Part shown: positions 2,229 to 61,248 of the stretch, in pieces
Layout: each line of letters begins with the position of its first letter
How positions within the stretch are numbered: the stretch's first letter is position 1
The notes under the pieces: generated by a model
What the model saw: the letters and a program-made list of their open reading frames with translations, nothing else
The model's database searches: none
Told to the model about the DNA's origin: nothing
Translations under genes and position numbers: made by a program
NCBI GenBank assembly: GCA_963813815.1
Contig: CAWFAD010000010.1
Location: forward strand, 96,001-160,000
Source of the DNA: an uncultured bacterium
Lineage (GTDB): Bacteria; Krumholzibacteriota; Krumholzibacteriia; Krumholzibacteriales; Krumholzibacteriaceae
Length of the DNA stretch: 64,000 bases
Direction: 5' to 3'

Positions 2229-5200
2229 CTAGATCGATTCCGTTTTTACGATCGCGCACGCCGGCTCCTCGCACGATTCGGCGATGAACGCGGCGTAGTT
2301 GCGCGTCGAACGTTCGTGGCTGTCGCCGGGCGCGCCGGCGGCGGCGGCCGCCGCGAAGACGGCCGCGGCGCGGCCATGGTCGCCCGCGCGCTCGCGGGCG
2401 ATCCCCTCGAGATAGAGGGTGTCGAGCTTCATATCGGGAGAGAGAGAGTCGTTCCCCGCCGCTCCGGCGAGCGCCGCGCACGCCAGCACGGGCCGGTCCA
2501 TGGCGAGGTAGATGCGGCCGAGCAGCAGCGCGCGCGTTGCTTTCGGCACGGCGCTCCACAGAATCGTTTCGAGCGCCTCGGCGGCCCGTCCCCGATCGAT
2601 GAGAAGGCCGACGAGGAGCTCCGTCGCTCCGGAGAAGGCCGGCGCGGCGGCGACGCGGGAGGAGAGCGCGGCGATCATGCGGTCGGCCCACGCCAGGTAC
2701 GAGCGCTCGATGCGGGCGTAGACGGGCGATCGGTCCGGCGCGGCGGCGAGCGCCTCTTCGAAGATGCTCACCGCTCGCTCGGTTTCGCCCGCGCCGTGCA
2801 GGATCTCGGCGAGCTCCATGGTGAGGTCGAGCGCGTCTTCTCCGCCGAGCGTGCGTCTGCCCTCGTCGATGCGGCTCTGGGCCTCGTCGAGCCTTCCCGC
2901 TCCCGCGAGCAGCGAGGCGCCGAGAGAAAAGTGCTCGCGGCGCGGAGCGCGGGCGATGAGCGCGGAGATGCGGGAGATGATTTCGCCGAGGAGGATCGTG
3001 TCGGGGGCGGTGAACGAGGCGACGAGCGAGAACGCCTCGTCGAGGCGCCCCGCGGCCGTCAGGCAGTCGACGGCGAGGAGCGTCTTCGCGGAGGCGGTCT
3101 CGTCCGGCCACCGGTGTCCCTCGATCGCGGCGATGACGCCGTCCGCGCACGCCCCGTCGCGCTCGAGCGCCGCGCGGAGATGCGTGAGCGCCTCCGCGTG
3201 CCGGCCCGCGCGGGCCATGAGCGCGCCGTATCGCGCGAGGAACGCGCCGTCCCCGCCGTGCGCCGGCAGGAAGGGTTCCACGATCGTGGCGAGGCGCGCC
3301 GCGTCGGCCGTTTCGTCGGCCATGAGGCGGGCGAGCGCGTCGCGCGAGCGGGCCGGATCGCCCGCATCGAGGTGGAGGCGCGCGAGGAGAACGTTCGCGT
3401 CGAGTTGCGCCGGGGACGCGGCGATGATGCTCTGGAGAACGTCGCTCGCCGCCGGCGCGAGACCCCTGTCACGATCGAGAAGGGAGGAGAGCAGGGCAGA
3501 GGCTTCTCCGTATCGCTCCTCGAGCGTGAGAATGCGCGCGTGGAGAAGGCCGAGGCTTCCGTCTTCCGGCGCGGCCGCGCGGACGCGGTCGAGCGAGGCG
3601 GAGAAATCCGCGAGCGACTCGCGGGGGCCCCGCTCGGCGGAGGCGAACAGACGGAGCGCCTCCTCGCGGTTTCCCTCGAACCAGACGATCTCGCCGAGGA
3701 GCACGGCGAGGATCCATGGCTCCACGCTGAGCGGCAGCAGCCGCTGGAGGGTCGTTTTGACGAGGGTTCGGCGGTCCGGCGAGAGCTCGAGGCACCGCCG
3801 GAACGCGGCGACGGCCTCCCGTTCCCGGGCGAGCCGCGCGAGCGACTGGCCGAGCAGGAAGTGCGCGCGGGGTTCGCCCGGATCGCGTTCGACGAGGGCG
3901 CGAAGCTCGACTTCGATCCCGCGGACGTCCGGCTGCTCCGCCTCGAGAGCGATTTCGAGGCAGCGGAGCGCCTCTTCATAGGCGCCCTCGGCGACCGAGA
4001 TGCGCGCGCCGTGGATATGGAGGGCGGCGGCCGCTTCGATCGGCAGGGCCGAGACGGCGCGCTTCATGATTTCCTTGGCGAGGTTCGTCCGGTGCACGGA
4101 GAGCGAGGTCGCGATCATCGTCTCCCAGACAGCCACGTTATCCGGCTCGAGCTCGACGAGCCGGTCGAACCGCTGCATGATGTCGCGTATCTGGCCCGGT
4201 TCGATCTCGAGCGCGCGGCAGAGGTGGCGCGCCGCCTCCGCGGGCGACTGCGCGTCGAGGTAGAGATGGTAGAGGGCGATATGAAGAGCCGCGCTTTCGC
4301 CGGAACGGGCGATCGCGCCGCGATAGAGATCGATGACCTTTCCGCGGAGACCTTCGTCGAGCATCATGAGCTGGTCGAATTCGAAGACGGCCCGTTCGAT
4401 GTCCCCGATCCGCAGGTGAGCCGCGGCGCGCGCGAAGCGGAGCGGCGGAGAGAGCTCCTCCCCGGCCGCCATGGCGTCGAGGAGGCCCGCGAGGAACCGT
4501 GAACGCTCCCCGTCCTCGCCCGCGAGATCCGCGAGCTCGGCCGCGAGGGGTTCGTGCTCGCCGCCGCCGTCGCGGCAGTACGCCGCGAGGTGGGGGAGCG
4601 CCTCGTCGATCGCGCCGCGCCGCATGGCGATGTCGATCGCGGTGGCGACGCCGGCGAGGGAGACTCCGCAGCGCCGCATGATCTCTCCGGCGAGCCGCAT
4701 GAGATCCTCCTCGGGGAGGCCTCCGACGCGCCTGAGGAGCCCGAGCGACTCCTCCGCGCTCTCGCGGTCGCCGAGCCGCGCGTAGAGCTCGCCGAGAAGC
4801 ATGACGAGCCTCGGATCGCGCTCCGCCGGGGGCGCCGTGAGCGCCTTGATCGATTGGACGAGGCCGGGCACCGCCGTTTCGTCGCCGTCCGCGGCGAGAC
4901 GCGCGGCGCGCGCCGCGTCTTCCATGCGGCCGGAGGCGGCGTAGAGGCGCGCGAGGAGATTCTGGCCCGGCGCGGACGGCGCCTTCGCCTCGCGCGGTTC
5001 GAGCCAGGCGACGACCTCGTTCGCTCGGCCGGGATCCCGCTCGAGGGAGGTCTCGAGGGCTGCGACCGCGTCCTTCATTTGTCCGATGGCGGCGGCGGCG
5101 TCGGCGTAGAGAAAAGCGACGGGACCTTCGGCGAAAACGTCCGCCGGAAGGATGGCGAGCCGGCACGCGACGCGCCGGCACCGCTCGTCGCTCGAAACGG

Positions 5201-51619: not shown

Positions 51620-52564
51620 ATGGGGCTCATTCTCGGCGTCGACATCGGCGGCACCGATATCAAGCTCGGGATCGTGGAAGAGTCGGCCCGCGTGCTCGAT
51701 TCGGGGTCGATTCCGACCCGGGCGCCGGAGGGTCCGGAGAGCGCGGCCGAGCGCGTCCGCGCCTGGTGCGAGAGCCGGAGCGCCGCGGCGTGCCGCGTCG
51801 ATGCGGCGGGGGTCGCCTGCGCGGGGCTCATCGACGGCGCGCGCGGATATCTTCACGTTTCGCCGAATCTCGGCGGCTGGGTCGACGTGGCGCTCCGCGA
51901 CCGCTTCGAGCGCGCGCTCGGCGTGCCGGTCACGGTCGAGAACGATGCGAACGCCGCGGCCTACGGAGAGTGGCGCGCCGGAGCGGGACGCGGGCTTCGG
52001 AGCTTCGTTTGCCTCACGCTCGGCACCGGTGTCGGCGGAGGCATCGTTTTGGACGGAGCCCTCTACCGGGGTTCGACCGGTTTCGCCGGCGAGATCGGGC
52101 ACGCGGTCATTTGCGCGGACGGTCCGCCCTGCGCGTGCGGCAACCGGGGGTGCCTCGAGGCGCTCATCGGAGCGGCGGCCATCCTCGGGCGGGCACGGGA
52201 GGCGTACGAGGCGGCGGGGCGGCCGCTCGCGGGAGACGGCGCGGGCATCTCCGTCGAGGGGCTCGCGCGCGCGGCGGCCGCGGGAGACGCGGCGGCGGCC
52301 GGCGTGTTCGCCGAAACGGGCCGGTACCTCGGCGTCGCTCTCGCGAACGTCGTCCATATTCTGGCCCCGGAGGCGATCGCCGTCGGCGGGGGAGTGGCGG
52401 GGGCGGGCGACCTCATCTTCGCCCCCGCGCGGGAAACGCTTCGTCGCTGCGTCATGGATCGCCGGATGGCCGAGGTCCGGGTCGTTCCGGCCGAGCTCGG
52501 CAACCGCGCCGCCGTGATCGGCTCCGCGCTGCTCGCGGCGGAGGAGGCCGGCCGCGCGCGATGA
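51620..52564 (+). CDS. ROK-family sugar kinase (glucokinase-like)
   Basis: GVDIGGT, ENDANAAAYGE, TLGTGVGGG, GEIGH, CACGNRGCLE. Confidence 0.92.
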   Translation: MGLILGVDIGGTDIKLGIVEESARVLDSGSIPTRAPEGPESAAERVRAWCESRSAAACRVDAAGVACAGLIDGARGYLHVSPNLGGWVDVALRDRFERALGVPVTVENDANAAAYGEWRAGAGRGLRSFVCLTLGTGVGGGIVLDGALYRGSTGFAGEIGHAVICADGPPCACGNRGCLEALIGAAAILGRAREAYEAAGRPLAGDGAGISVEGLARAAAAGDAAAAGVFAETGRYLGVALANVVHILAPEAIAVGGGVAGAGDLIFAPARETLRRCVMDRRMAEVRVVPAELGNRAAVIGSALLAAEEAGRAR

Positions 52565-55500
52565 GGGAAAGGGCGCGCGGGCGAATGAAAATCGTCATGT
52601 CGAGAGGATTTCATCTTCGATTGCTTTTCGCGGCGATCGCGGCCTCGCTCGCCGCCGCGGCCGTTTGCCCGCCCGCCGGAGCGCAGGAGGGCGTCCCCGC
52701 CGCGGGCGACAGCGCGATCTACCGCGTCGACGCGGCGCGGCTTCGCTGGACGACGGAGGACGCAGAGCGCGTCATCTACCTCGAGGGGGGCGTGCGCCTC
52801 GAGCACCAGACGACGACCATCACGGGATCCTGGGGAAAACACTACCCCTCCCGGCGGTACCTCATGCTGCACGACAGCGTTCGCGTCGTCGACGGCACGA
52901 CGGTGATGACGGCCGATGAGGGGGAGTATTTCGGCGGGACGAACACCGTCGTCCTGCGGGGGCGGGTCCGCGTGCGGGACACCGGCTGGCAGGCCCGCTG
53001 CGACCGGGTGACGTACGATCGCACGACCCGGGTCGCCGTCATGACCGGCAACCTGAGCCTCGCCGACAGCACGCGAACCCTCTACGCCGACACGATCGTA
53101 TACGACCGTTTCCGCGAAACGGCCGACGCGCGGGGCGGCGTGGTGCTCGCCGACGACGTCGAGGACTATTCGATCGCCGGAGCCCACGCACGGTACGATC
53201 GCGCCCGCCGGAAGGCCGTGGTCGACGTCGATCCAGTGCTCACCTTCGATCTGCGCGCGGAGGAAAAGGGGATCGTTACGAGCCGCCTCATGCGCTTCGA
53301 CATCGACCGCAAACTCGGCATCGCCGAGGGAGACGTCAATCTGGCGAAGGGGGAGACCCGGGCGAGCTGCGACAGCGCGGCCATCTACGACGAGGAGGGG
53401 AGGATCGAGCTCTACGGAAAGCCCCTGGCGACGAGCGACAGGTCCTCGATGAGCGGGACGCGGATGATTCTGTGGTACGACGACGCCGCCGTGCAGCGCA
53501 TCGTCCTCCCCGAGGACGGACGGATAGCCGAATCCCCGCCCGAGGGTTCGCCGTGGCGGGACGATTCGTGGATCGAGGGCGATTCGATCGCCGTCTATCT
53601 TTCGGACGAGCGCGTCGATTCGGTGCGGATCGAGCGCAGCGCCCGTGCGATGTACTATCCCGCCGAGGAGACCGAGCGCAAGGTGTCCAACAACTACGCG
53701 GCGGGAAGCAGGATGTACTTCGCGTTCCGCGAAGGCGAGCTCTCGTATCTGCGCATCGACGGAAAGGCGACGGGACTCTATCAGTTTCTGAATCTCGGCG
53801 GGACAGAGACGATCGACAGCCTCTCCGCCGCGATCGACACGGCGCTCGTCTTCCGGAGCTTCGAGAAGTCGAGCGAGCGCGTTCGGTACAGCGCCGACAC
53901 GATCGAGTACTACGCCGGGCGGGAGAATATCGTCATGCACGGAAAGGCCATGCTCAAGTATCAGGACTCGAGCCTCGAGGCGCGGCGCATCGACTACGAT
54001 TCGCGCCTCAACATCATCGAGGCCACCGGCGCCCCCGTGCTCACGGAGGCCGACCAGCGGATGTACGGGGAGGACATGGGGTACGACATGGACACCCAGG
54101 CGGGCGTGGTCGTCGAGGGCTCGACGAAGTACGACCAGGGGTACTACGTCGGATCGAACATCTTCAAGGTCGGGAGCGACGTGCTCAAGGTCTATCACTC
54201 GACCTACACGACGTGCGACCTCAAGGAGCCGCACTACTCGCTGCGCTCCGACAAGATGAAGGTCTACGTGAACGACAAGATCGTGTCGGGGCCGATCACG
54301 CTCCGCATCGGCGAGCTCCCGGTCTTCTACCTCCCCTTCATGGTCAACTCGCTGCGCCGCGACCGCTCCTCGGGGCTCCTCCGTCCCAATTTCGACATCG
54401 GCATCGACAGCAGGGACGGTCGTTTCATCCGGGGGCTCGGCTACTACTGGGCGACGAACGACTACACCGATTTCACCCTCGTCGGCGATTTCAACGAGAA
54501 CCGGAACATCCGGTTCAACGTCGCGAACCGCTACAAGCTCCGGTACGTCCTCGACGGCGACGTTCGCCTCGACTTCGTCCGGCAGTTCGATCCGAGCGGC
54601 ACCGAATGGAGGATCGAATCGGACCATTCCCAGCAATTCTCGCGGACGGCGAGCTTTCGCAGCAATCTCGAGTTCGTCTCGAGCGACGAGGCGCAGGAGG
54701 CGATCAACAGCTCCGAGGACACGCGGCGGTTCATCGACCGCAAGATCTATTCGACGGCGAGCTACCGCCAATCGTGGGGGGGGACGAGCCTGAGCCTCTC
54801 GGCGAGCCGGGACCAGAAGCTGAACGTGCAGAGCCCCACGACGCCGTCCATCGCGATGACCCTGCCGAGCCTCTCCATCGCCCTTCCGCGGACCTCGCTC
54901 TGGTTCGGCGACAAGCACTCCTCGTCCGAACGATCCTTCTGGGAGAGCGCCCTCGGCGGGATCGCGTTCACCCCGTCGCTTTCGGGAAACCACAGCCGGA
55001 GCGAGAGCGAGGTGCAGAAGCGCTCGGTCGTCACGGCGAGCTCGGGCGCCGGCTTCAGCCGCCAGCAGAGCGTCGGATTCCTCGACGTCAACCCGTCGAT
55101 GAGCCTGCGCTGGAACTACCAGAAGGAGATCGAGAACACGGTCGACACCGCGGGGACGGGCATCGTGTTCGTCCCGGCGCGCGCCGAGTATCGCAACGAG
55201 GTGTCGATGAGCCTCTCGACGGGTCTCGGGACGAAGATCTACGGAACCTTTCACCCGCGCATCGGCTCGCTGGCCGGCATCCGCCACACCCTGAACCCCG
55301 TCGTCTCGTGGCAGTACGTCCCGAAGCTCAGCGAGCGGCAACGGAGCTCGCAGAGCGTCTCGTGGGAGCTCCGCAACTCGATCGATCTGAAGCTCGTGAA
55401 GGGCGAACGGGAGACGAAGCAGAACGGCGTGTTCACCTGGTATCTCAACGGGTACTACCGTCCGGAGAAGGCGATCGCCGACGCCTTTTCCGACATCTCG

Positions 55501-56127
55501 AGCTCGATGCGGCTGCAGGCCGGAAGCTTCATATCGTTCAACCTCAACCAGACCTGGTCCATGGAGTACCGGGAGATCGTCGCCACGACCTTCAGCACCG
55601 GATTCGATCTGCGCGGAGCGTTCGCCTATCCGGCGACGTGGAAGGAGCCCGAGCGCGAGCGCATCGCCGCCGCCCTCGACGAACCCTCCGATGCCCCCGT
55701 TCCGGGCGGGGCCGCCGCGCCGGGCCTGACTCCGGCGTCGGCGGGGAGCTGGTCGCTTCGGCTCAATTACAACTTGAGCCAGAACGTCGGGCGCCGGCTG
55801 CTCTCCGACGGCTCCATCGCGGCGACCCGGCAAACGGACAGCAACCTCGATCTCGGCGGCGCGCTCTCGCTCACGAAGAACTGGCGGATCACCTACTACG
55901 CGTACTACAACGTCGAGGCCCGCGATTTCACCGAGTACCGCTACGCGATCGAGCGCGATCTCCACTGCTGGCGCGCGAGCTTCAACCATCGGCGCTTCGG
56001 AGACGATTGGAGCTACTATTTCCAGATCGCGATCAAGGCGCATCCCGACATCATGTACGAGCAGGGCACCCGCGGAATCCAGTCGTTCGGAGGCTCCGGC
56101 GGCGGATTTCCCATGAGCGGGTACTGA
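52561..56127 (+). CDS. lptD: LPS-assembly protein: long OstA/LptA-like region fused to an LptD-like domain
   Basis: Signal peptide; repeated beta-jellyroll strands; YSADTIEY, YTTCDLKEPHY, LPVFYLPF, SSGLLRP, GLGYYW, RDLHCW; start at 52561, 52585 or 52597. Confidence 0.8.
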   Translation: MRERARGRMKIVMSRGFHLRLLFAAIAASLAAAAVCPPAGAQEGVPAAGDSAIYRVDAARLRWTTEDAERVIYLEGGVRLEHQTTTITGSWGKHYPSRRYLMLHDSVRVVDGTTVMTADEGEYFGGTNTVVLRGRVRVRDTGWQARCDRVTYDRTTRVAVMTGNLSLADSTRTLYADTIVYDRFRETADARGGVVLADDVEDYSIAGAHARYDRARRKAVVDVDPVLTFDLRAEEKGIVTSRLMRFDIDRKLGIAEGDVNLAKGETRASCDSAAIYDEEGRIELYGKPLATSDRSSMSGTRMILWYDDAAVQRIVLPEDGRIAESPPEGSPWRDDSWIEGDSIAVYLSDERVDSVRIERSARAMYYPAEETERKVSNNYAAGSRMYFAFREGELSYLRIDGKATGLYQFLNLGGTETIDSLSAAIDTALVFRSFEKSSERVRYSADTIEYYAGRENIVMHGKAMLKYQDSSLEARRIDYDSRLNIIEATGAPVLTEADQRMYGEDMGYDMDTQAGVVVEGSTKYDQGYYVGSNIFKVGSDVLKVYHSTYTTCDLKEPHYSLRSDKMKVYVNDKIVSGPITLRIGELPVFYLPFMVNSLRRDRSSGLLRPNFDIGIDSRDGRFIRGLGYYWATNDYTDFTLVGDFNENRNIRFNVANRYKLRYVLDGDVRLDFVRQFDPSGTEWRIESDHSQQFSRTASFRSNLEFVSSDEAQEAINSSEDTRRFIDRKIYSTASYRQSWGGTSLSLSASRDQKLNVQSPTTPSIAMTLPSLSIALPRTSLWFGDKHSSSERSFWESALGGIAFTPSLSGNHSRSESEVQKRSVVTASSGAGFSRQQSVGFLDVNPSMSLRWNYQKEIENTVDTAGTGIVFVPARAEYRNEVSMSLSTGLGTKIYGTFHPRIGSLAGIRHTLNPVVSWQYVPKLSERQRSSQSVSWELRNSIDLKLVKGERETKQNGVFTWYLNGYYRPEKAIADAFSDISSSMRLQAGSFISFNLNQTWSMEYREIVATTFSTGFDLRGAFAYPATWKEPERERIAAALDEPSDAPVPGGAAAPGLTPASAGSWSLRLNYNLSQNVGRRLLSDGSIAATRQTDSNLDLGGALSLTKNWRITYYAYYNVEARDFTEYRYAIERDLHCWRASFNHRRFGDDWSYYFQIAIKAHPDIMYEQGTRGIQSFGGSGGGFPMSGY

Positions 56128-56229: not shown

Positions 56230-56265
56230 GGCGCCAAATCCACGTTCAAGCAAAGGAGGTGAATC

Positions 56266-56559
56266 ATGAACAAGACCGATCTCATCGAAAAGGTCGCCAA
56301 GAAGACCGGGTTGACACTGAAGGATTCGCGCGCCGTCGTCGAAACGATTTTCAGCACTTCTCCGAAGGAAGGCGTCATCGCCGCCGAGCTCGACGCCGGC
56401 AGGAAGGTTCAGATCACCGGTTTCGGGACCTTCATGACGCGCAGAAGGAAGAAACGCATGGGACGCAACCCGCAGACGGGCGAAGCGATCACGATTCCTG
56501 CGGCGAAGTTCCCCGCGTTCGCGGCCGGCAAGTCGCTCAAGGCTCGCGTCGCGAAGTAA
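56266..56559 (+). CDS. hup: HU-family DNA-binding protein
   Basis: [11 protein letters not shown]...VQITGFGTF...GRNPQTGE...[10 protein letters not shown]. Confidence 0.95.
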
Positions 56560-56574
56560 CCGAGTTTTCGCAGG

Positions 56575-56612
56575 GGGGCAAAGGGAGTTCGCTCTTTTTG
56601 CCCCGTTTTTTT
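56575..56612 (+). terminator. Intrinsic terminator
   Basis: GGGGCAAAGGGAG-TTCG-CTCTTTTTGCCCC followed by a T-tract. Confidence 0.8.
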
Positions 56613-56660
56613 GCAGGCACGAGGGCGGCGCCGGACGGCGGCGCCGCGGTCGGGACGCAT

Positions 56661-58037
56661 ATGCGCTTCATGGTTCTCCTCCTCGGGGCGGGCGCCCTCG
56701 CCGCCTCGTTCGCCGGCTGCGACGAGGAGCGGCCGGTCACCGTGCTTTTCACGGGGGACGACCGGGGATTCGTCGTCCCCGCGGGTTGAGGGGAGACCGC
56801 CTCCGGCGGCGTGGCCCGGCGGGCCGCGAAAATCAACGAGCTCCGTCTCCGCGACGCGGAGCTTCTGCTGCTCTCGGCCGGCGATTTCAGCGCCGAGCCC
56901 GGTATCGTCGAAATGTACCGCTCCCGTTTTCTCTCGCGCACGATGGTCGCTCTCGGCTACGACGCAGTGGCCGTCGGGGAGCGCGAGCTCAACCACGGCA
57001 TCCGGACGCTCAAGGCGGAGGCGGAGGAGGGGCTGCCGCTCATCTGCGCGAATCTCTTCGAGGGCGGGGAGCGCGTCTTTCCTCCGTATATCGTGAAAAA
57101 GGCGCACGGAAAGAGGATCGGCATTCTCGCGCTGCTCGGAGCTCCTCCGCGGGAAACGCGAGGGCTCGAGATCCGCGATCCGGCGTCCGAGGGGCGCGAG
57201 GTCATCGAGGAACTGCGGGGCCGGACGGACTGCATCATCCTCCTCGCGCACATGGGGCGCGAGGAGCTCGCCCATGTGTTGCCGGCGCTCGAGGGGGTCG
57301 ACATCGTCATCCGCGCTCACGCGGCGGGGATCGAGCAGGAAGCGGGCGACTGCGCCGATACGACGGGCGGCCACTTCGAGAACGCGGCGAAGCCGATCCT
57401 CTTCGCGGGGGATCGCGGCCGGAAAATCGGGCTCGCGGCCGTCGCCGCCGCGGGCGGAGATCGCCCCGCGCTCGTCGAGCGGCGGCTCTTCGATCTCGAC
57501 TCGTCGGTTCCGGACGACTCCTCGACGGCGGAGCGGCTGCGCTCGTTCCTCGACGGGGAAGGAGAGCGGCGGCGCGAGCTCTCCCTCTCGAGGGCGCTTT
57601 CTCGCGAGGAGGGGACGGGGCGCGTTCTCGAACGCTACCTCGGCGTGGACGTTTGCGCGCGCTGCCACGGGGAGCTCATGCCGCGATTCACGCTGAGCCG
57701 CCACTCCCGCGCGATGGGGACGCTCCGCGCGCGCGGGGAGGAAACGAACCCCGTTTGCCTTCCGTGCCATACTACCGGATACGGACGCCCGACCGGGTAC
57801 AGCCCCGAAACAGAAACGAAGGGCGCGCCGTATCTTCAGGGGGTGCAATGCGAGGCCTGTCACGGTCCGGGAACGATGCACGAGCGCACCGGCGCCTACG
57901 CGGAGGCCGGCCGGAAATCCTGCCGCGCCTGCCACACGTCGAAGTGGAGCCCCGAGTTCGACTACGAGGCGTCATGGCGGCGGGCCGCGCATTGCGGGAA
58001 ACTCGCGGACAGCGCGTCCGCCGCGGGAGCGCCATGA
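56661..58037 (+). CDS. Putative selenoprotein lipoprotein: UshA-like domain plus tetraheme cytochrome c, in-frame TGA (Sec43) at 56787-56789
   Basis: One frame from ATG 56661: signal, FAGC lipobox, VLFTGDDRGFVVPAG*GETASGGVARR, then SAGD, YDAVAVGERE, CANL, LLAH; four CxxCH motifs. Confidence 0.78.
56799..56824 (+). promoter_or_regulatory. Candidate bacterial SECIS hairpin
   Basis: GCCT-CCG-gc-GGC[GTG]GCC-CGG-c-GGGC; the G-initiated loop starts 22 nt after the TGA (folded by eye). Confidence 0.45.
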
Positions 58038-58777
58038 GAACGATCGCCAGCGCCGCAATCGCCCTCTCCCTCGCCGTCGCGGCCGTCCCCGCCGCCGCCG
58101 TGGATTTTCTCGTCCCCGGCGTCTCGCTCGGGTCCGTTTCGCTCGAGCCCGGCGCGCGGGTGCGCTACCTCGTCGTGACGCAATCGTTCGGATCGTCCGA
58201 TAGCTCGCAGGTCGAGCTCGCCGTTCTCTCGCACGGCCGCGGCGAGGTTCGTCTCGAGGTGTCGACCGCGCCCTATCCGCCCAGCCGAGACGAGACGTTC
58301 ACCGTGAGACTGCGGCTCGCGGAGAGCGTCACGTCGATCGAGTCGGCCGAGGAGTTCCGCGGGTGTCTCCGCGAGATCCGGATCCGCGAGGGGGACGAGG
58401 GTTTTCGCGCGCCCACGGATGACGAGCTCGACGAGCTCGCGATCGAGGATCTCTTCGTCCAAAGCTCCGCCGGCGCCGAGCGCCGGGCGCTCGAGAGCGG
58501 GAAGGTGGCCGTGCCGGCGGGATCCTTCACCTGCTCGGGGATCGAGACCTCGAGACGGAGCGCGCGCACGGTCACGCTCGGCGGCGTGCGGGCCGAGCGC
58601 ACCGAGGAGGAGGTGACCCGGATCTACCTCTCCCGGGACGTGCCGCTCTGGGGGCTCGTGAAGAGCCGAATGGAAAAGCGGAGCATGATGCGGCGCGAGG
58701 GCGCCCCGGCCGCGGCGCCGCGGATCACGATCACCGAATCGACGCTGCTCTCGTTCGAGAGGCCGCGCGCGAGATGA
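58034..58777 (+). CDS. Hypothetical secreted protein
   Basis: ATGA overlap with the upstream gene; signal peptide ending AAA; VAVPAGSFTC and SRDVPLWGLVK segments. Confidence 0.75.
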   Translation: MRTIASAAIALSLAVAAVPAAAVDFLVPGVSLGSVSLEPGARVRYLVVTQSFGSSDSSQVELAVLSHGRGEVRLEVSTAPYPPSRDETFTVRLRLAESVTSIESAEEFRGCLREIRIREGDEGFRAPTDDELDELAIEDLFVQSSAGAERRALESGKVAVPAGSFTCSGIETSRRSARTVTLGGVRAERTEEEVTRIYLSRDVPLWGLVKSRMEKRSMMRREGAPAAAPRITITESTLLSFERPRAR

Positions 58778-58844: not shown

Positions 58845-58872
58845 TTGCGAAAAACTATTTTTATGCTAGAAT
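58845..58872 (+). promoter_or_regulatory. Putative sigma-70 promoter
   Basis: TTGCGA-N16-TAGAAT with extended TG, in an AT-rich patch. Confidence 0.55.
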
Positions 58873-58893: not shown

Positions 58894-61248
58894 GTGCATC
58901 TTCGCTCGAGCGTGACGCTGTGTATCGCATGCGCGATCGTCGTTCTGGGAATCGAACCGGTGCGGGGGGAGATCCCGTCCCGTCCCGGGACCGTTTCGTG
59001 CGCCGTCATCGTTCATGACCGCTCCCCGGACTCCTTCGAGCGCGCCGTCGCCGCCGCGGAGGCGGCCGGCGCCCGCGCCATGCAGATGCTGCCTCCCGAA
59101 ACCTTTTTCGCGCGCTTTCCCGCCCGCCCCTCCCGGTCGCTCTTTCAGGGGCTTCCGGTCGAGCTCGTCTTCTCATCGGGCGACGTTCGCGGCAAGGGGC
59201 TCGGTCCCGTCGCCGAAAAGGCGCTCGGGCGTCTTTTCGACGGCATCGGCGCGGCGGCGGCCGGGGCGGCCCCCGCGGCGGGGGAGCCCGTCGAGGACGT
59301 CCTGCTCCGCGTTCCTCCCGAGATCATCCGCGCGGCGACTCCCGCGGGGCCTCGCCTCGCCTCGCCGGGCGAGATATTCGATCGAGGACCGACGCAGAAT
59401 AGCGAGTTTCTCATCGGAACCGTGCTCGTGAACATCGTTTTTCCGGAAAGCGACGGCGGCACGGAGAACTGGACCCAGGACGAGATTTCGGGCGCCGTGG
59501 CCGACCTGATGCTCGGCATCCAGCAGTATCTCGATCGCGCGGGCTGGATGACGACGCCGCTGCGCTTCATTTACAACTACAGGGATTACGTCGGGGTCCC
59601 CGTGTCCATCGAGCCGATCGAGAGCAACATGGACACGGATTACATCTGGATTTCCGAGGCGATGGCCGCGCTCGGCTACAGCGCCGACGCCTATTTCGGC
59701 CCGAGCGCGCTCAACAACGCGACGCGCTCCGCGTTCGACGCCGACTGGGTCTTTACGGCGTTCGTCGCCGACATGAGCGCGCATTACGATCCCGATCCCG
59801 ATCGTCCCGATCCCGGCTGCTGGGGCGGGGCGGGATACGTCGCCTACGCGTACCTCGGCGGCCCGTACCTCGTCATACCGTATCCGGCCTGCCGCTACGG
59901 GTACGGCCTCGGTTTCGGCCGCGTGTTCATTCACGAGATGAGCCACATTTTCTGGGCGCTCGACGAGTACGTGAGCGGCGATTATTACACGCTCTGCACC
60001 GAATGCTCGGGGTACCTCAACGTGCCGACGCTCAACACGCTCTTCCGGCCCGATATGTGCGGCTCCACCCCCGTCGAGTGCATCATGCAGACGGCGAGCC
60101 CTCCGTTCGAGTCGCCGCTCCCCATCTGCGAGACGACTCAGGGGCAGGTCGGGCTCTACGAGAAAGAGCTCGGCGCCATCACGGTGCCCGCCATCTACAG
60201 CCTCGCGCCCGAAATCGAGTTCGTCGTCCTGCCGGGGCTCGAGACCGACACGGTGCTGCCCGACGGAGAGTATCTGTTCGGGGCCCACGTGACGAATCCG
60301 GCCGTTCCGAACCTGAACTCCCAGCAGCCCTCCATCTACCGGATCGATTACGCGGCGGAGCTCGCGAGCGGAGAGATCTCGATCAACGAGATGCCGTACG
60401 AGCCGATCCGGCCCTCGACCGGGGCCTGGGACAGCTCGCGCGAGGACATCGGATTGATCATGGACGGAAGCGTGTTCGAGCCGGGCCTCAACTCGATCCA
60501 GCTGCGCGTGCGCAACATCGCCACGCTCGAAACGATCGCGGAAACGCAGGTGTTCGCGATCGGCATCAAGTATTTCTTCGTCGCGGCGGAGGCCGACAGC
60601 TCCGTCGTCGAGATCTCCTGGGTCACGCCGGGGGAGGTCTTCGGCGCGGCGTTTTCGGTGCTGCGCTCCGACGATACGATCGGCGAGACGGACGCCGTCG
60701 TGTCGGTCGTGACCGAGCCGGTGACGGCGGCTCCCGACCGCCGGGCCTACGCCTTCACGGACACCCTCGTTCGCCCGGGGCATCGCTACCGGTACCGGAT
60801 CGTCGCGTCGTTCGAAATAGATTTTCGCGGCGAGCATCTCGCGTATGAATTTCCGTCGGCCGAAATGAGCGCCACGGCGCTCATACCGATAGCGCCGGGA
60901 GCGTTCGTGTCGAGCCTGCTGCCGAATCCGACGAGAGGGCCGGTGTCCTTCACCGTCGAGGTGCCGATGAGCTATCAACGGGTCGACGACAGCCGGGCGC
61001 CGGCGCCGAACGCGGCGCGGCTCTCTCCCGCGTTGATTCCGGTCACGACGTTCGTCGACATCACGGTGTACAACGTTCTCGGGCAGCGGCTCCGCACGAT
61101 CTTCTCGGGCAGTCTCTTCGGCGGCTACATGTCTCTCGTCTGGGACGGCGCCGGCGATTCGGGCGCCCTCGTTCCGCCGGGGGTCTACTTTCTCTCCGTG
61201 ACGGCGGGAGGGGCGAGGGACGTGCGAAAGGTCGTCATCGTCCGCTGA
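58894..61248 (+). CDS. Secreted zinc metalloprotease with C-terminal FlgD-Ig/T9SS-CTD-like domain
   Basis: Signal peptide; HEMSHIFWALDEY zincin motif; PNP...VYNVLGQRLRT...WDG...G..VPPGVYF...RKVVIVR. Confidence 0.82.
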   Translation: MHLRSSVTLCIACAIVVLGIEPVRGEIPSRPGTVSCAVIVHDRSPDSFERAVAAAEAAGARAMQMLPPETFFARFPARPSRSLFQGLPVELVFSSGDVRGKGLGPVAEKALGRLFDGIGAAAAGAAPAAGEPVEDVLLRVPPEIIRAATPAGPRLASPGEIFDRGPTQNSEFLIGTVLVNIVFPESDGGTENWTQDEISGAVADLMLGIQQYLDRAGWMTTPLRFIYNYRDYVGVPVSIEPIESNMDTDYIWISEAMAALGYSADAYFGPSALNNATRSAFDADWVFTAFVADMSAHYDPDPDRPDPGCWGGAGYVAYAYLGGPYLVIPYPACRYGYGLGFGRVFIHEMSHIFWALDEYVSGDYYTLCTECSGYLNVPTLNTLFRPDMCGSTPVECIMQTASPPFESPLPICETTQGQVGLYEKELGAITVPAIYSLAPEIEFVVLPGLETDTVLPDGEYLFGAHVTNPAVPNLNSQQPSIYRIDYAAELASGEISINEMPYEPIRPSTGAWDSSREDIGLIMDGSVFEPGLNSIQLRVRNIATLETIAETQVFAIGIKYFFVAAEADSSVVEISWVTPGEVFGAAFSVLRSDDTIGETDAVVSVVTEPVTAAPDRRAYAFTDTLVRPGHRYRYRIVASFEIDFRGEHLAYEFPSAEMSATALIPIAPGAFVSSLLPNPTRGPVSFTVEVPMSYQRVDDSRAPAPNAARLSPALIPVTTFVDITVYNVLGQRLRTIFSGSLFGGYMSLVWDGAGDSGALVPPGVYFLSVTAGGARDVRKVVIVR

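Follow-up and report, generated by a model that had tools for sequence, protein, structure and literature searches.

A divergent UshA-like selenoprotein gene from an uncultured Krumholzibacteriaceae bacterium encodes a predicted tetrahaem lipoprotein

A selenoprotein entered as "COG0737, UshA-like, CxU" has been in print since 2008 (Zhang & Gladyshev, PMC2398784). The UshA-like selenoprotein family also appears in the table of a 2022 review (PMC9312934), and a 2026 review that lists the family cites the NCBIfam model NF041198 (PMC13188914). One scan of species-representative genomes identified 515 confirmed family relatives. Record titles of family loci name Krumholzibacteria, Eisenbacteria, Acidobacteriota, Nitrospirota, Myxococcota and others. 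The family is widespread and catalogued, yet we found no assigned function for it in the literature. Here we describe a divergent member encoded in a 64,000-nucleotide stretch of an uncultured Krumholzibacteriaceae bacterium (contig CAWFAD010000010.1, positions 96,001 to 160,000; assembly GCA_963813815.1), hereafter the window. The host genome, 90.8% complete, comprises 16 contigs with a total of 2.53 Mb. Very probably, one gene of the window encodes an exported, membrane-anchored selenocysteine (Sec) lipoprotein of a divergent UshA-like subfamily, which would have a redox role in the periplasm. Coordinates, given as window positions, are collected in Table 1.

In a mechanical list of open reading frames (ORFs) the gene is cut into 56259..56789 and 56811..58037. 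Direct reading shows a single frame between ATG 56661 and the end at 58037. Its sole in-frame interruption is TGA 56787-56789, at codon 43. Both the split and the underlying single frame had been described in the initial annotation, which was made from the sequence alone. The 42 codons 5' of the TGA encode a hydrophobic signal running to SFAG and Cys20, followed by VTVLFTGDDRGFVVPAG. On the 3' side lie, in order, GETASGGVARRA, SAGD, GERE, LLAHM, IRAH and four CXXCH motifs. The translation contains every motif picked out earlier (VLFTGDDRG, GGVARR, SAGD, GERE and LLAH), as well as PAGU and the proposed lipoprotein signal with Cys20. We refer to sequences from the window's own order (families f1-f3 of the relatives; 22 aligned sequences) as order-level and to a further 10 sequences as class-level. 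The lipobox column is Cys in 19/22 order-level orthologues. A hydrophobic N-terminal signal lies 5' of the TGA or TGC in 39/39 fetched orthologues.

The genomes of 60 relatives were searched with the read-through protein and 39 orthologous loci were then fetched. Best matches at E <= 1e-50 were obtained in 56 relatives and, in 55 of them, an in-frame TGA fell within the match. In the exception, G053, the best match is a TGA-free copy, and a TGA-bearing fragment exists besides. The remaining 4/60 relatives gave weak or partial matches only. Among the fetched loci the codon is TGA in 38 and TGC in a single paralogue (L058), always at the identical alignment column. This column is conserved in orthologues of as low as 28% identity, and residues 5' of it, signal peptide included, are conserved in 39/39 loci. 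Across 120 loci, homologues with TGA or Cys at codon 43 amount to 78 TGA rows and 9 Cys-codon rows; one of the TGA rows, L080 ("RRGU"), is a false pattern match.

A G-loop hairpin had been placed 22 nt after the TGA. The hairpin is present but begins 20-21 nt past the TGA. It resembles a selenocysteine insertion sequence (SECIS), and its GGC loop starts 31 nt after the U of UGA. A bacterial SECIS hairpin lies shortly downstream of the UGA and has G in the apical loop, with a bSECISearch spacing of about 16-37 nt, and the window hairpin conforms to this. Folding energy of the window sequence by itself was not above chance (z = -0.37; 60/200 shuffles fold equally well), and Rfam had no matching model in 56500-57100. 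Covariation, conversely, supports the hairpin. Pairing holds in 92.4% of cells across 38 distinct TGA-bearing sequences, 4/8 stem pairs show double-sided changes and 0/500 shuffles equal the observed covariation score. In the 120 loci, the 9 Cys-codon rows act as a control, encoding the same GG-x-A-R-R peptide as the TGA rows. The mean number of stem pairs is 7.19/8 in the 78 TGA rows versus 4.89/8 in these controls, and 74/78 TGA-bearing rows have a GG[CA] loop. Hence, the significance of the hairpin derives from comparison across sequences, not from the energy of one sequence.

All components for Sec insertion that were looked for are encoded in the genome: selA (506 bits), selB (353 bits), selD (367 bits) and tRNA-Sec (71 bits) score above curated cut-offs, and ARAGORN reports a tRNA-SeC with anticodon tca. 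We conclude that TGA 43 encodes selenocysteine and that this is a genuine selenoprotein gene, because the TGA occupies a single column in 38 orthologues, has Cys-codon homologues, is followed by a covarying hairpin that decays in Cys forms, and coexists with selA, selB, selD and tRNA-Sec. The central proposal of the initial annotation, a hidden selenoprotein, is borne out. The codon was also compared with other sequencing. It is covered, with no listed difference, by contigs of public runs from three studies (X1, 56709-57189; X2, 56739-56834; X3, 56701-56851), one of which may be the source sample. These contigs exclude a sequencing error at the TGA. None of the listed runs that hold the DNA is given as RNA, and a further run, X11, taken as RNA by guess alone, gave just short contig pieces.

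Public gene calls of close relatives begin after the TGA in 120/120 listed cases. They are 357-417 aa long, with query coverage of no more than 89%, and their names are either "hypothetical protein" or "multiheme c-type cytochrome". In the window the equivalent start is GTG 56811. Since the signal peptide and conserved residues lie 5' of the TGA in all orthologues, this GTG does not begin the normal product. The signal peptide, which four c-type haems require, is present on the read-through product alone. The public calls of the subfamily are systematically truncated; hence, both Sec and export signal go unrecorded in inventories of Krumholzibacteria-type selenoproteomes and cytochromes.

The top NCBIfam match of the protein is NF041198 ("UshA_like_PCGU, UshA-like (seleno)protein"). 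It is matched in two stretches, profile positions 19-237 and 343-519, which cover the N-terminal domain and the haem tail. The family's architecture, an exported 5'-nucleotidase-like domain with a C-terminal multihaem domain, is present. Its P-C-G-U (CxU) motif is not, the window motif being P-A-G-U. Judged by these matches, the fusion of a 5'-nucleotidase-like domain to haem motifs with an in-frame Sec belongs to the already catalogued family and is not new in kind. Three things do appear to be new: a long-branch order-level subfamily scoring under the family cut-off, loss of the motif Cys together with gain of Cys231, and a downstream secreted LolA-like partner with a conserved Cys. Our literature search returned nothing on selenocysteine in a nucleotidase-tetraheme protein, nor on selenocysteine in Krumholzibacteriota.

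Domain assignments were made with a profile of 32 orthologues searched against PDB. Solved 5'-nucleotidases matched at E 1e-39 over residues 28-310, SoxB at E 1e-10, and cytochrome c554 (1bvb) at E 2e-16 over residues 330-440. The alignments to 5'-nucleotidases stop at about residue 310-317, where the cytochrome domain comes next. An AlphaFold2 model of the selenoprotein has a mean predicted local distance difference test score (pLDDT) of 79.7, exceeding 90 across most of residues 25-220, and Foldseek ranks 5'-nucleotidases as its best matches (E 1e-22). Pfam, run on the window protein with E up to 0.1, matched neither Metallophos nor 5_nucleotid_C. Its matches were to cytochrome families only, with PF13435 Cytochrome_C554 at 54.3 bits versus a cut-off of 20.8. 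NF041198, PDB and Pfam matches agree on the make-up suggested at the outset, an UshA-like domain and a tetrahaem cytochrome on a lipoprotein signal. As far as alignment can tell, the tetrahaem domain stands in place of the nucleotide-binding C-terminal domain of 5'-nucleotidases. The haem motifs CARCH, CLPCH, CEACH and CRACH are present as claimed, and all four are invariant across aligned orthologues. The genome also holds a cytochrome c assembly gene (PF01578, 127 bits). With CXXCH motifs, the PF13435 score, an export signal and a maturation gene all present, the protein is a predicted multihaem cytochrome c, to which haem should be attached.

Several metal ligands had been called degenerate, and this is correct for one half of the site. 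According to column counts, D33, D75, E107, H197 and H220 are retained in 21-22/22 order-level sequences. R35, E107, R108, N111 and A222 stand at the positions of the DxH His, the GNHE Asn, the catalytic His, its Asp and the Gln ligand, respectively; for this mapping we assume part of the UshA numbering. Hence, the dyad and two site-1 ligands are lost and the five retained residues leave the site only half degenerate. Compared with a 5'-nucleotidase, the window protein has an incomplete set of dimetal ligands, and its catalytic, hydrolytic His/Asp dyad is, by alignment, gone. The paralogue L058 (G058:C1:1515893-1517218), a Cys form with S-C-G-C, is alone among aligned sequences in keeping the DxH His (SNDLHGE). 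Its hairpin has decayed to 5/8 pairs. In the PDB profile alignment Sec43 falls opposite a loop Cys of eukaryotic 5'-nucleotidases, which forms a structural disulfide in CD73.

The subfamily is set apart by an exchange of cysteines. Two residues before Sec, order-level sequences have A, S, F, V or Y (22/22) and class-level sequences have Cys (10/10). Conversely, Cys231 is found in 22/22 order-level and 0/10 class-level sequences, within an insertion of 8-10 residues after His220 that CxU forms do not have. A wider sample comprised 84 distinct full-length family proteins out of 120 loci. Here, the motif Cys is missing in 30/84 and present in 54/84. The same 30 proteins that lack it have the insertion with an invariant Cys231, giving 30/30 versus 0/54, a count that is not independent co-evolution because the 30 form one clade. 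They make up one side of a single branch, with an SH-like approximate likelihood ratio test (SH-aLRT) value of 100 and 0.71 changes per column along the stem. On this tree the swap from Cys41 to Cys231 is a single, clade-defining evolutionary event. The initial annotation reported A-G-U with no vicinal Cys, which holds, Ala being at Sec -2. It also called the Sec "lone", which probably does not: because the subfamily has gained an invariant Cys231 in an insertion of its own, the partner cysteine seems to have been relocated there. So clean a swap of partner Cys offers a testable handle with no counterpart in the canonical family.

The gene that follows encodes a secreted protein, and its ATG 58034 overlaps the stop TGA 58035-58037 as ATGA. 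Both had been noted beforehand, and are confirmed. A homologue lies directly 3' of the selenoprotein gene in 26/26 order-level loci with downstream DNA. Homologues were also found at the class-level PCGU loci L056 and L057, and at L082, L090 and L099 (phmmer E 1e-13 to 1e-17). At 14 further PCGU loci a trimmed hidden Markov model gave weak matches, always to the ORF directly 3' of the selenoprotein gene. At least 90% of 28 aligned partners retain Cys167, as do 16/16 rows made up of the window partner, 2 class-level and 13 remote homologues. Searches of Pfam and NCBIfam gave no match for the partner. In the ESM Atlas it matched "hypothetical protein" clusters only; one of these, at rank 22, has DUF3108_like on 21% of it. 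The AlphaFold2 model (pLDDT 83.4) is an all-beta open barrel. Fold comparisons with LolA/LolB/RseB-type and YmcC-like proteins were middling, both by VIA-align (Z 9.5-7.5 to the putative lipoprotein 4fvs, CT021, LolA, LolB and RseB/MucB) and by Foldseek (E 1e-5 and template modelling scores of 0.3-0.4). We tentatively regard the modelled fold as LolA-superfamily-like. A second handle absent from the canonical family is this obligatory partner downstream, in which a single Cys is conserved.

The mechanism that we favour is as follows. UGA-43 would be decoded by SelB and tRNA-Sec, aided by the hairpin 20 nt downstream. The read-through lipoprotein would be exported and anchored in the membrane, facing the periplasm, and would act there as an oxidoreductase rather than a nucleotidase. 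Sec43, which lies in the loop following the first metal motif, may be the reactive nucleophile. It could cycle with a resolving Cys, which would be the vicinal Cys of C-G-U in canonical forms and Cys231, behind the motif-V His, here. The haem chain would deliver or accept the electrons. A metal or an anionic substrate may be bound at the retained D33/D75/E107/H197/H220 site. The LolA-like partner, with its one conserved Cys, is predicted to be co-transcribed and translationally coupled, and its probable role is to carry or present the substrate. At class level, one PCGU clade (L059, L062 and L065) no longer has the site-2 ligands, with Gly or Asn at the His columns, and has kept C-G-U and all haem motifs. 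Hence, Sec or Cys together with the haems forms the constant core. Neighbouring genes were scanned against Pfam using 61 ORFs from 38/40 selected distant loci. Membrane electron-transfer neighbours occur at 3/40 of these loci, which supports the redox reading. In L094 (Myxococcales), a PCGU gene is followed by a NapC/NirT cytochrome (2414-4018). In L097 (2315-5257; titled "bacterium") and L117 (2452-5410; Eisenbacteria), a MauE/DoxX membrane protein and a NapH-like Fer4_5 protein flank the PCGU gene.

A different role for the Sec must be weighed against this mechanism. Selenocysteine is a metal ligand in formate dehydrogenase and [NiFeSe] hydrogenase. Sec43, with Cys231 here and Cys41 elsewhere, might likewise be a ligand of a remodelled metal site 1, replacing the lost His and Gln and producing a haem-fed, Se/S-ligated metal centre. 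The five residues kept in 21-22/22 order-level sequences suit this proposal. So does the loss of precisely two site-1 ligands, the DxH His and the Gln after motif V, and the position of Sec43 and Cys231, both in loops after metal-ligand motifs (I and V). However, L059, L062 and L065 keep C-G-U and the haems having lost the site-2 ligands, and we prefer the redox reading for this reason. A Sec-ligated metal centre is possible but rather unlikely.

SoxB is itself an enzyme of the 5'-nucleotidase family. It acts in the periplasm, in sulfur chemistry, on a substrate held by the cysteine of a partner, the SoxYZ carrier. The window protein might still be a hydrolase of this kind, a sulfo- or phospho-esterase whose substrate is carrier-bound or small and anionic, with the haems serving another step or regulation. 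Class-level relatives reach 85-98 bits on the SoxB model, SoxB is among the PDB matches described above, site-2 ligands are kept, and a partner with a conserved Cys is reminiscent of a carrier protein. Conversely, the window protein scores 25.8 bits versus the SoxB cut-off of 550 (TIGR04486), its catalytic His is Arg108 and the Asp partner Asn111, the substrate-binding C-terminal domain has been swapped for a cytochrome, and use of Sec speaks for redox or nucleophilic chemistry. This is the weaker rival, and a distinctly improbable one.

The TGA could also be a true stop, in a pseudogene, through an assembly error, or between two products with the second starting at GTG 56811. Gene callers do choose that GTG, and the hairpin on its own sequence folds no better than shuffles. 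However, orthologues with as little as 28% identity have the TGA at one column, preceded by conserved codons and a signal peptide, it recurs in contigs of three studies, the 56811 product would have four CXXCH motifs and no export signal, and the Sec machinery is complete. The column conservation, the independent contigs and the machinery refute a true stop in practice, and we consider it barely credible. Reading of the TGA as a standard amino acid, by a reassigned code or by near-cognate Trp/Cys read-through, has a negligible chance of being right: the selenoprotein gene and its partner both terminate in TGA, tRNA-Sec, SelB and a position-specific hairpin are present, and the hairpin is lost where the codon is TGC or TGT.

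Several observations weigh against an exported selenolipoprotein of the UshA-like family with a redox role. The NF041198 score of 209.5 bits is below the cut-off of 275, as are the scores of all six subfamily members examined (187-216 bits); class-level PCGU forms score 219-296 bits, with 3/7 over the cut-off. Loop 221-240 is of low confidence in the AlphaFold2 model (pLDDT 61-65). The cysteine swap, being one event, is no statistical proof of functional coupling despite 30/30 versus 0/54. Strong conservation in the order of 5/7 metal-ligand positions fits a working metal centre, possibly one for hydrolysis of a non-nucleotide ester. The match of the partner to LolA-type folds is middling (Z 9.5). 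Outside Krumholzibacteria-type genomes the scan found no recurrent functional neighbour, and those present are mostly housekeeping genes. Our literature search found no functional study or biochemical data for any member of the UshA-like family. The redox lipoprotein is nonetheless the best explanation of the data as a whole.

By analogy, the two genes might supply a carrier and its enzyme for chalcogen (S/Se) chemistry in the periplasm, an oxidoreductive counterpart of SoxYZ-SoxB. A substrate such as polysulfide, S8 or Se0 would sit on Cys167 of the partner or in its hydrophobic barrel, be attacked by Sec43 and be resolved by Cys231, with the four haems as electron path. Sec or Cys could even be an axial haem ligand, the role that Cys has in SoxAX and TsdA. 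We offer this as a long shot. If it were true, the relocated resolving Cys would be a natural experiment on the tuning of selenenylsulfide chemistry. The Cys swap and the partner Cys point to residues for mutation and to a protein for co-expression.

Table 1. Features of the two-gene unit and its 5' boundary (window positions).
Feature	Position	Strand	Remarks
Intrinsic terminator of upstream HU gene	about 56575..56612	+	5' boundary of the two-gene unit; extent also given as 56575-56604
Selenoprotein gene, UshA-like/tetrahaem lipoprotein	56661..58037	+	458 codons, then stop TGA 58035-58037
Lipoprotein signal peptide (predicted)	56661..56720	+	lipobox Cys20 at codon 56718-56720, after a hydrophobic stretch (SFAG/C)
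Degenerate 5'-nucleotidase-type metallophosphatase domain and linker helix	56736..57596	+	residues about 26-312
Selenocysteine codon U43	56787..56789	+	motif P-A-G-U-G; one alignment column in 38 TGA orthologues and 1 TGC paralogue
SECIS-type hairpin	56810..56828	+	within coding sequence (V-A-R-R-A); 8-bp stem 56810-56817/56821-56828, apical loop GGC 56818-56820
Cys231	57351..57353	+	within the 8-10 residue insertion after His220, not found in CxU forms
Tetrahaem cytochrome c554-like domain	57633..57995	+	four CXXCH motifs; invariant His348 and His407
Haem motif CARCH	57654-57668	+	
Haem motif CLPCH	57756-57770	+	
Haem motif CEACH	57849-57863	+	
Haem motif CRACH	57921-57935	+	
Partner gene, 247-aa secreted protein	58034..58777	+	signal peptide about residues 1-22; mature start DFLVPG
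Conserved Cys167 of partner	58532-58534	+	from alignment

The 3' limit of the two-gene unit is the promoter-like site of the following gene (58845-58872). That gene is a 784-aa ORF (58894-61248, plus strand) whose sole Pfam match is a C-terminal FlgD_ig domain. On the 5' side lie an LptD-type ORF of 1453 aa with OstA, LptD_N and LptD_2 domains (51766-56127, plus strand) and then the HU gene (56266-56559, plus strand), which has a strong terminator. LptD is likewise upstream of the family gene at the distant locus L111.

Further selenoprotein and UshA-like genes were seen elsewhere. About 14 kb past the window end, selD (G000:C10:174414-175340, locus L010) has one in-frame TGA in the context C-A-G-U-A-A-K. 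Hence, SelD of this host is predicted to be a selenoprotein too. About 11 kb before the window start lies a second UshA-like gene (G000:C10:84406-85158, minus strand; locus L025). It encodes a signal peptide and has an in-frame TGA in a canonical E-P-C-G-U context, and it is short and has no haem domain. Its NF041198 score is 87 bits, and NF049981, the family-2 model, does not claim it. A third, TGA-free UshA-like paralogue is at C7:254424-255257. In the Eisenbacteria-titled locus L102, two family genes stand in tandem with motifs E-C-G-U and P-C-G-U (match 3001-4248, second motif near 1876).

How does the window protein compare with described systems? The metallophosphatase fold and linker helix are shared with UshA and CD73 (PDB 1ush, 4h2i, 5h7w), as are four identical metal ligands. 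In contrast, the DxH His is replaced by Arg, the GNHE Asn by Glu, the catalytic His by Arg and the Gln ligand by Ala. The nucleotide-binding C-terminal domain is missing, and a Sec and four predicted haems are gained. With Nitrosomonas cytochrome c554 (1bvb; PF13435) the protein has in common a tetrahaem domain with four CXXCH motifs at similar spacing; here, however, this counterpart forms the C-terminal part of a larger enzyme. Axial ligands can be assigned in part, H348 and H407 being invariant and H444 not. The window pair resembles SoxB and SoxYZ in having a conserved partner with one conserved Cys. Unlike that system, it has no adjacent sox genes, the partner is predicted to be a LolA-like barrel rather than SoxYZ-like, and haems and Sec are found instead of a dimanganese hydrolytic site.

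The closest relatives are selenoproteins. Family 2 of the UshA-like selenoproteins (NF049981; motif CxxU) is likewise 5'-nucleotidase-like, but its members are short and haem-less, and the window protein scores 38.3 bits on that model versus a cut-off of 140. With the NF041198 family it shares a signal peptide, a degenerate 5'-nucleotidase N-terminal domain, Sec in the loop before GG-x-A-R-R, a SECIS hairpin over V/L-A-R-R-A and a C-terminal tetrahaem domain. It departs from that family in having a lipobox where the others have a plain signal peptide, Ala in place of the motif Cys (A, S, F, V or Y in its order), and an inserted loop with the invariant Cys231.

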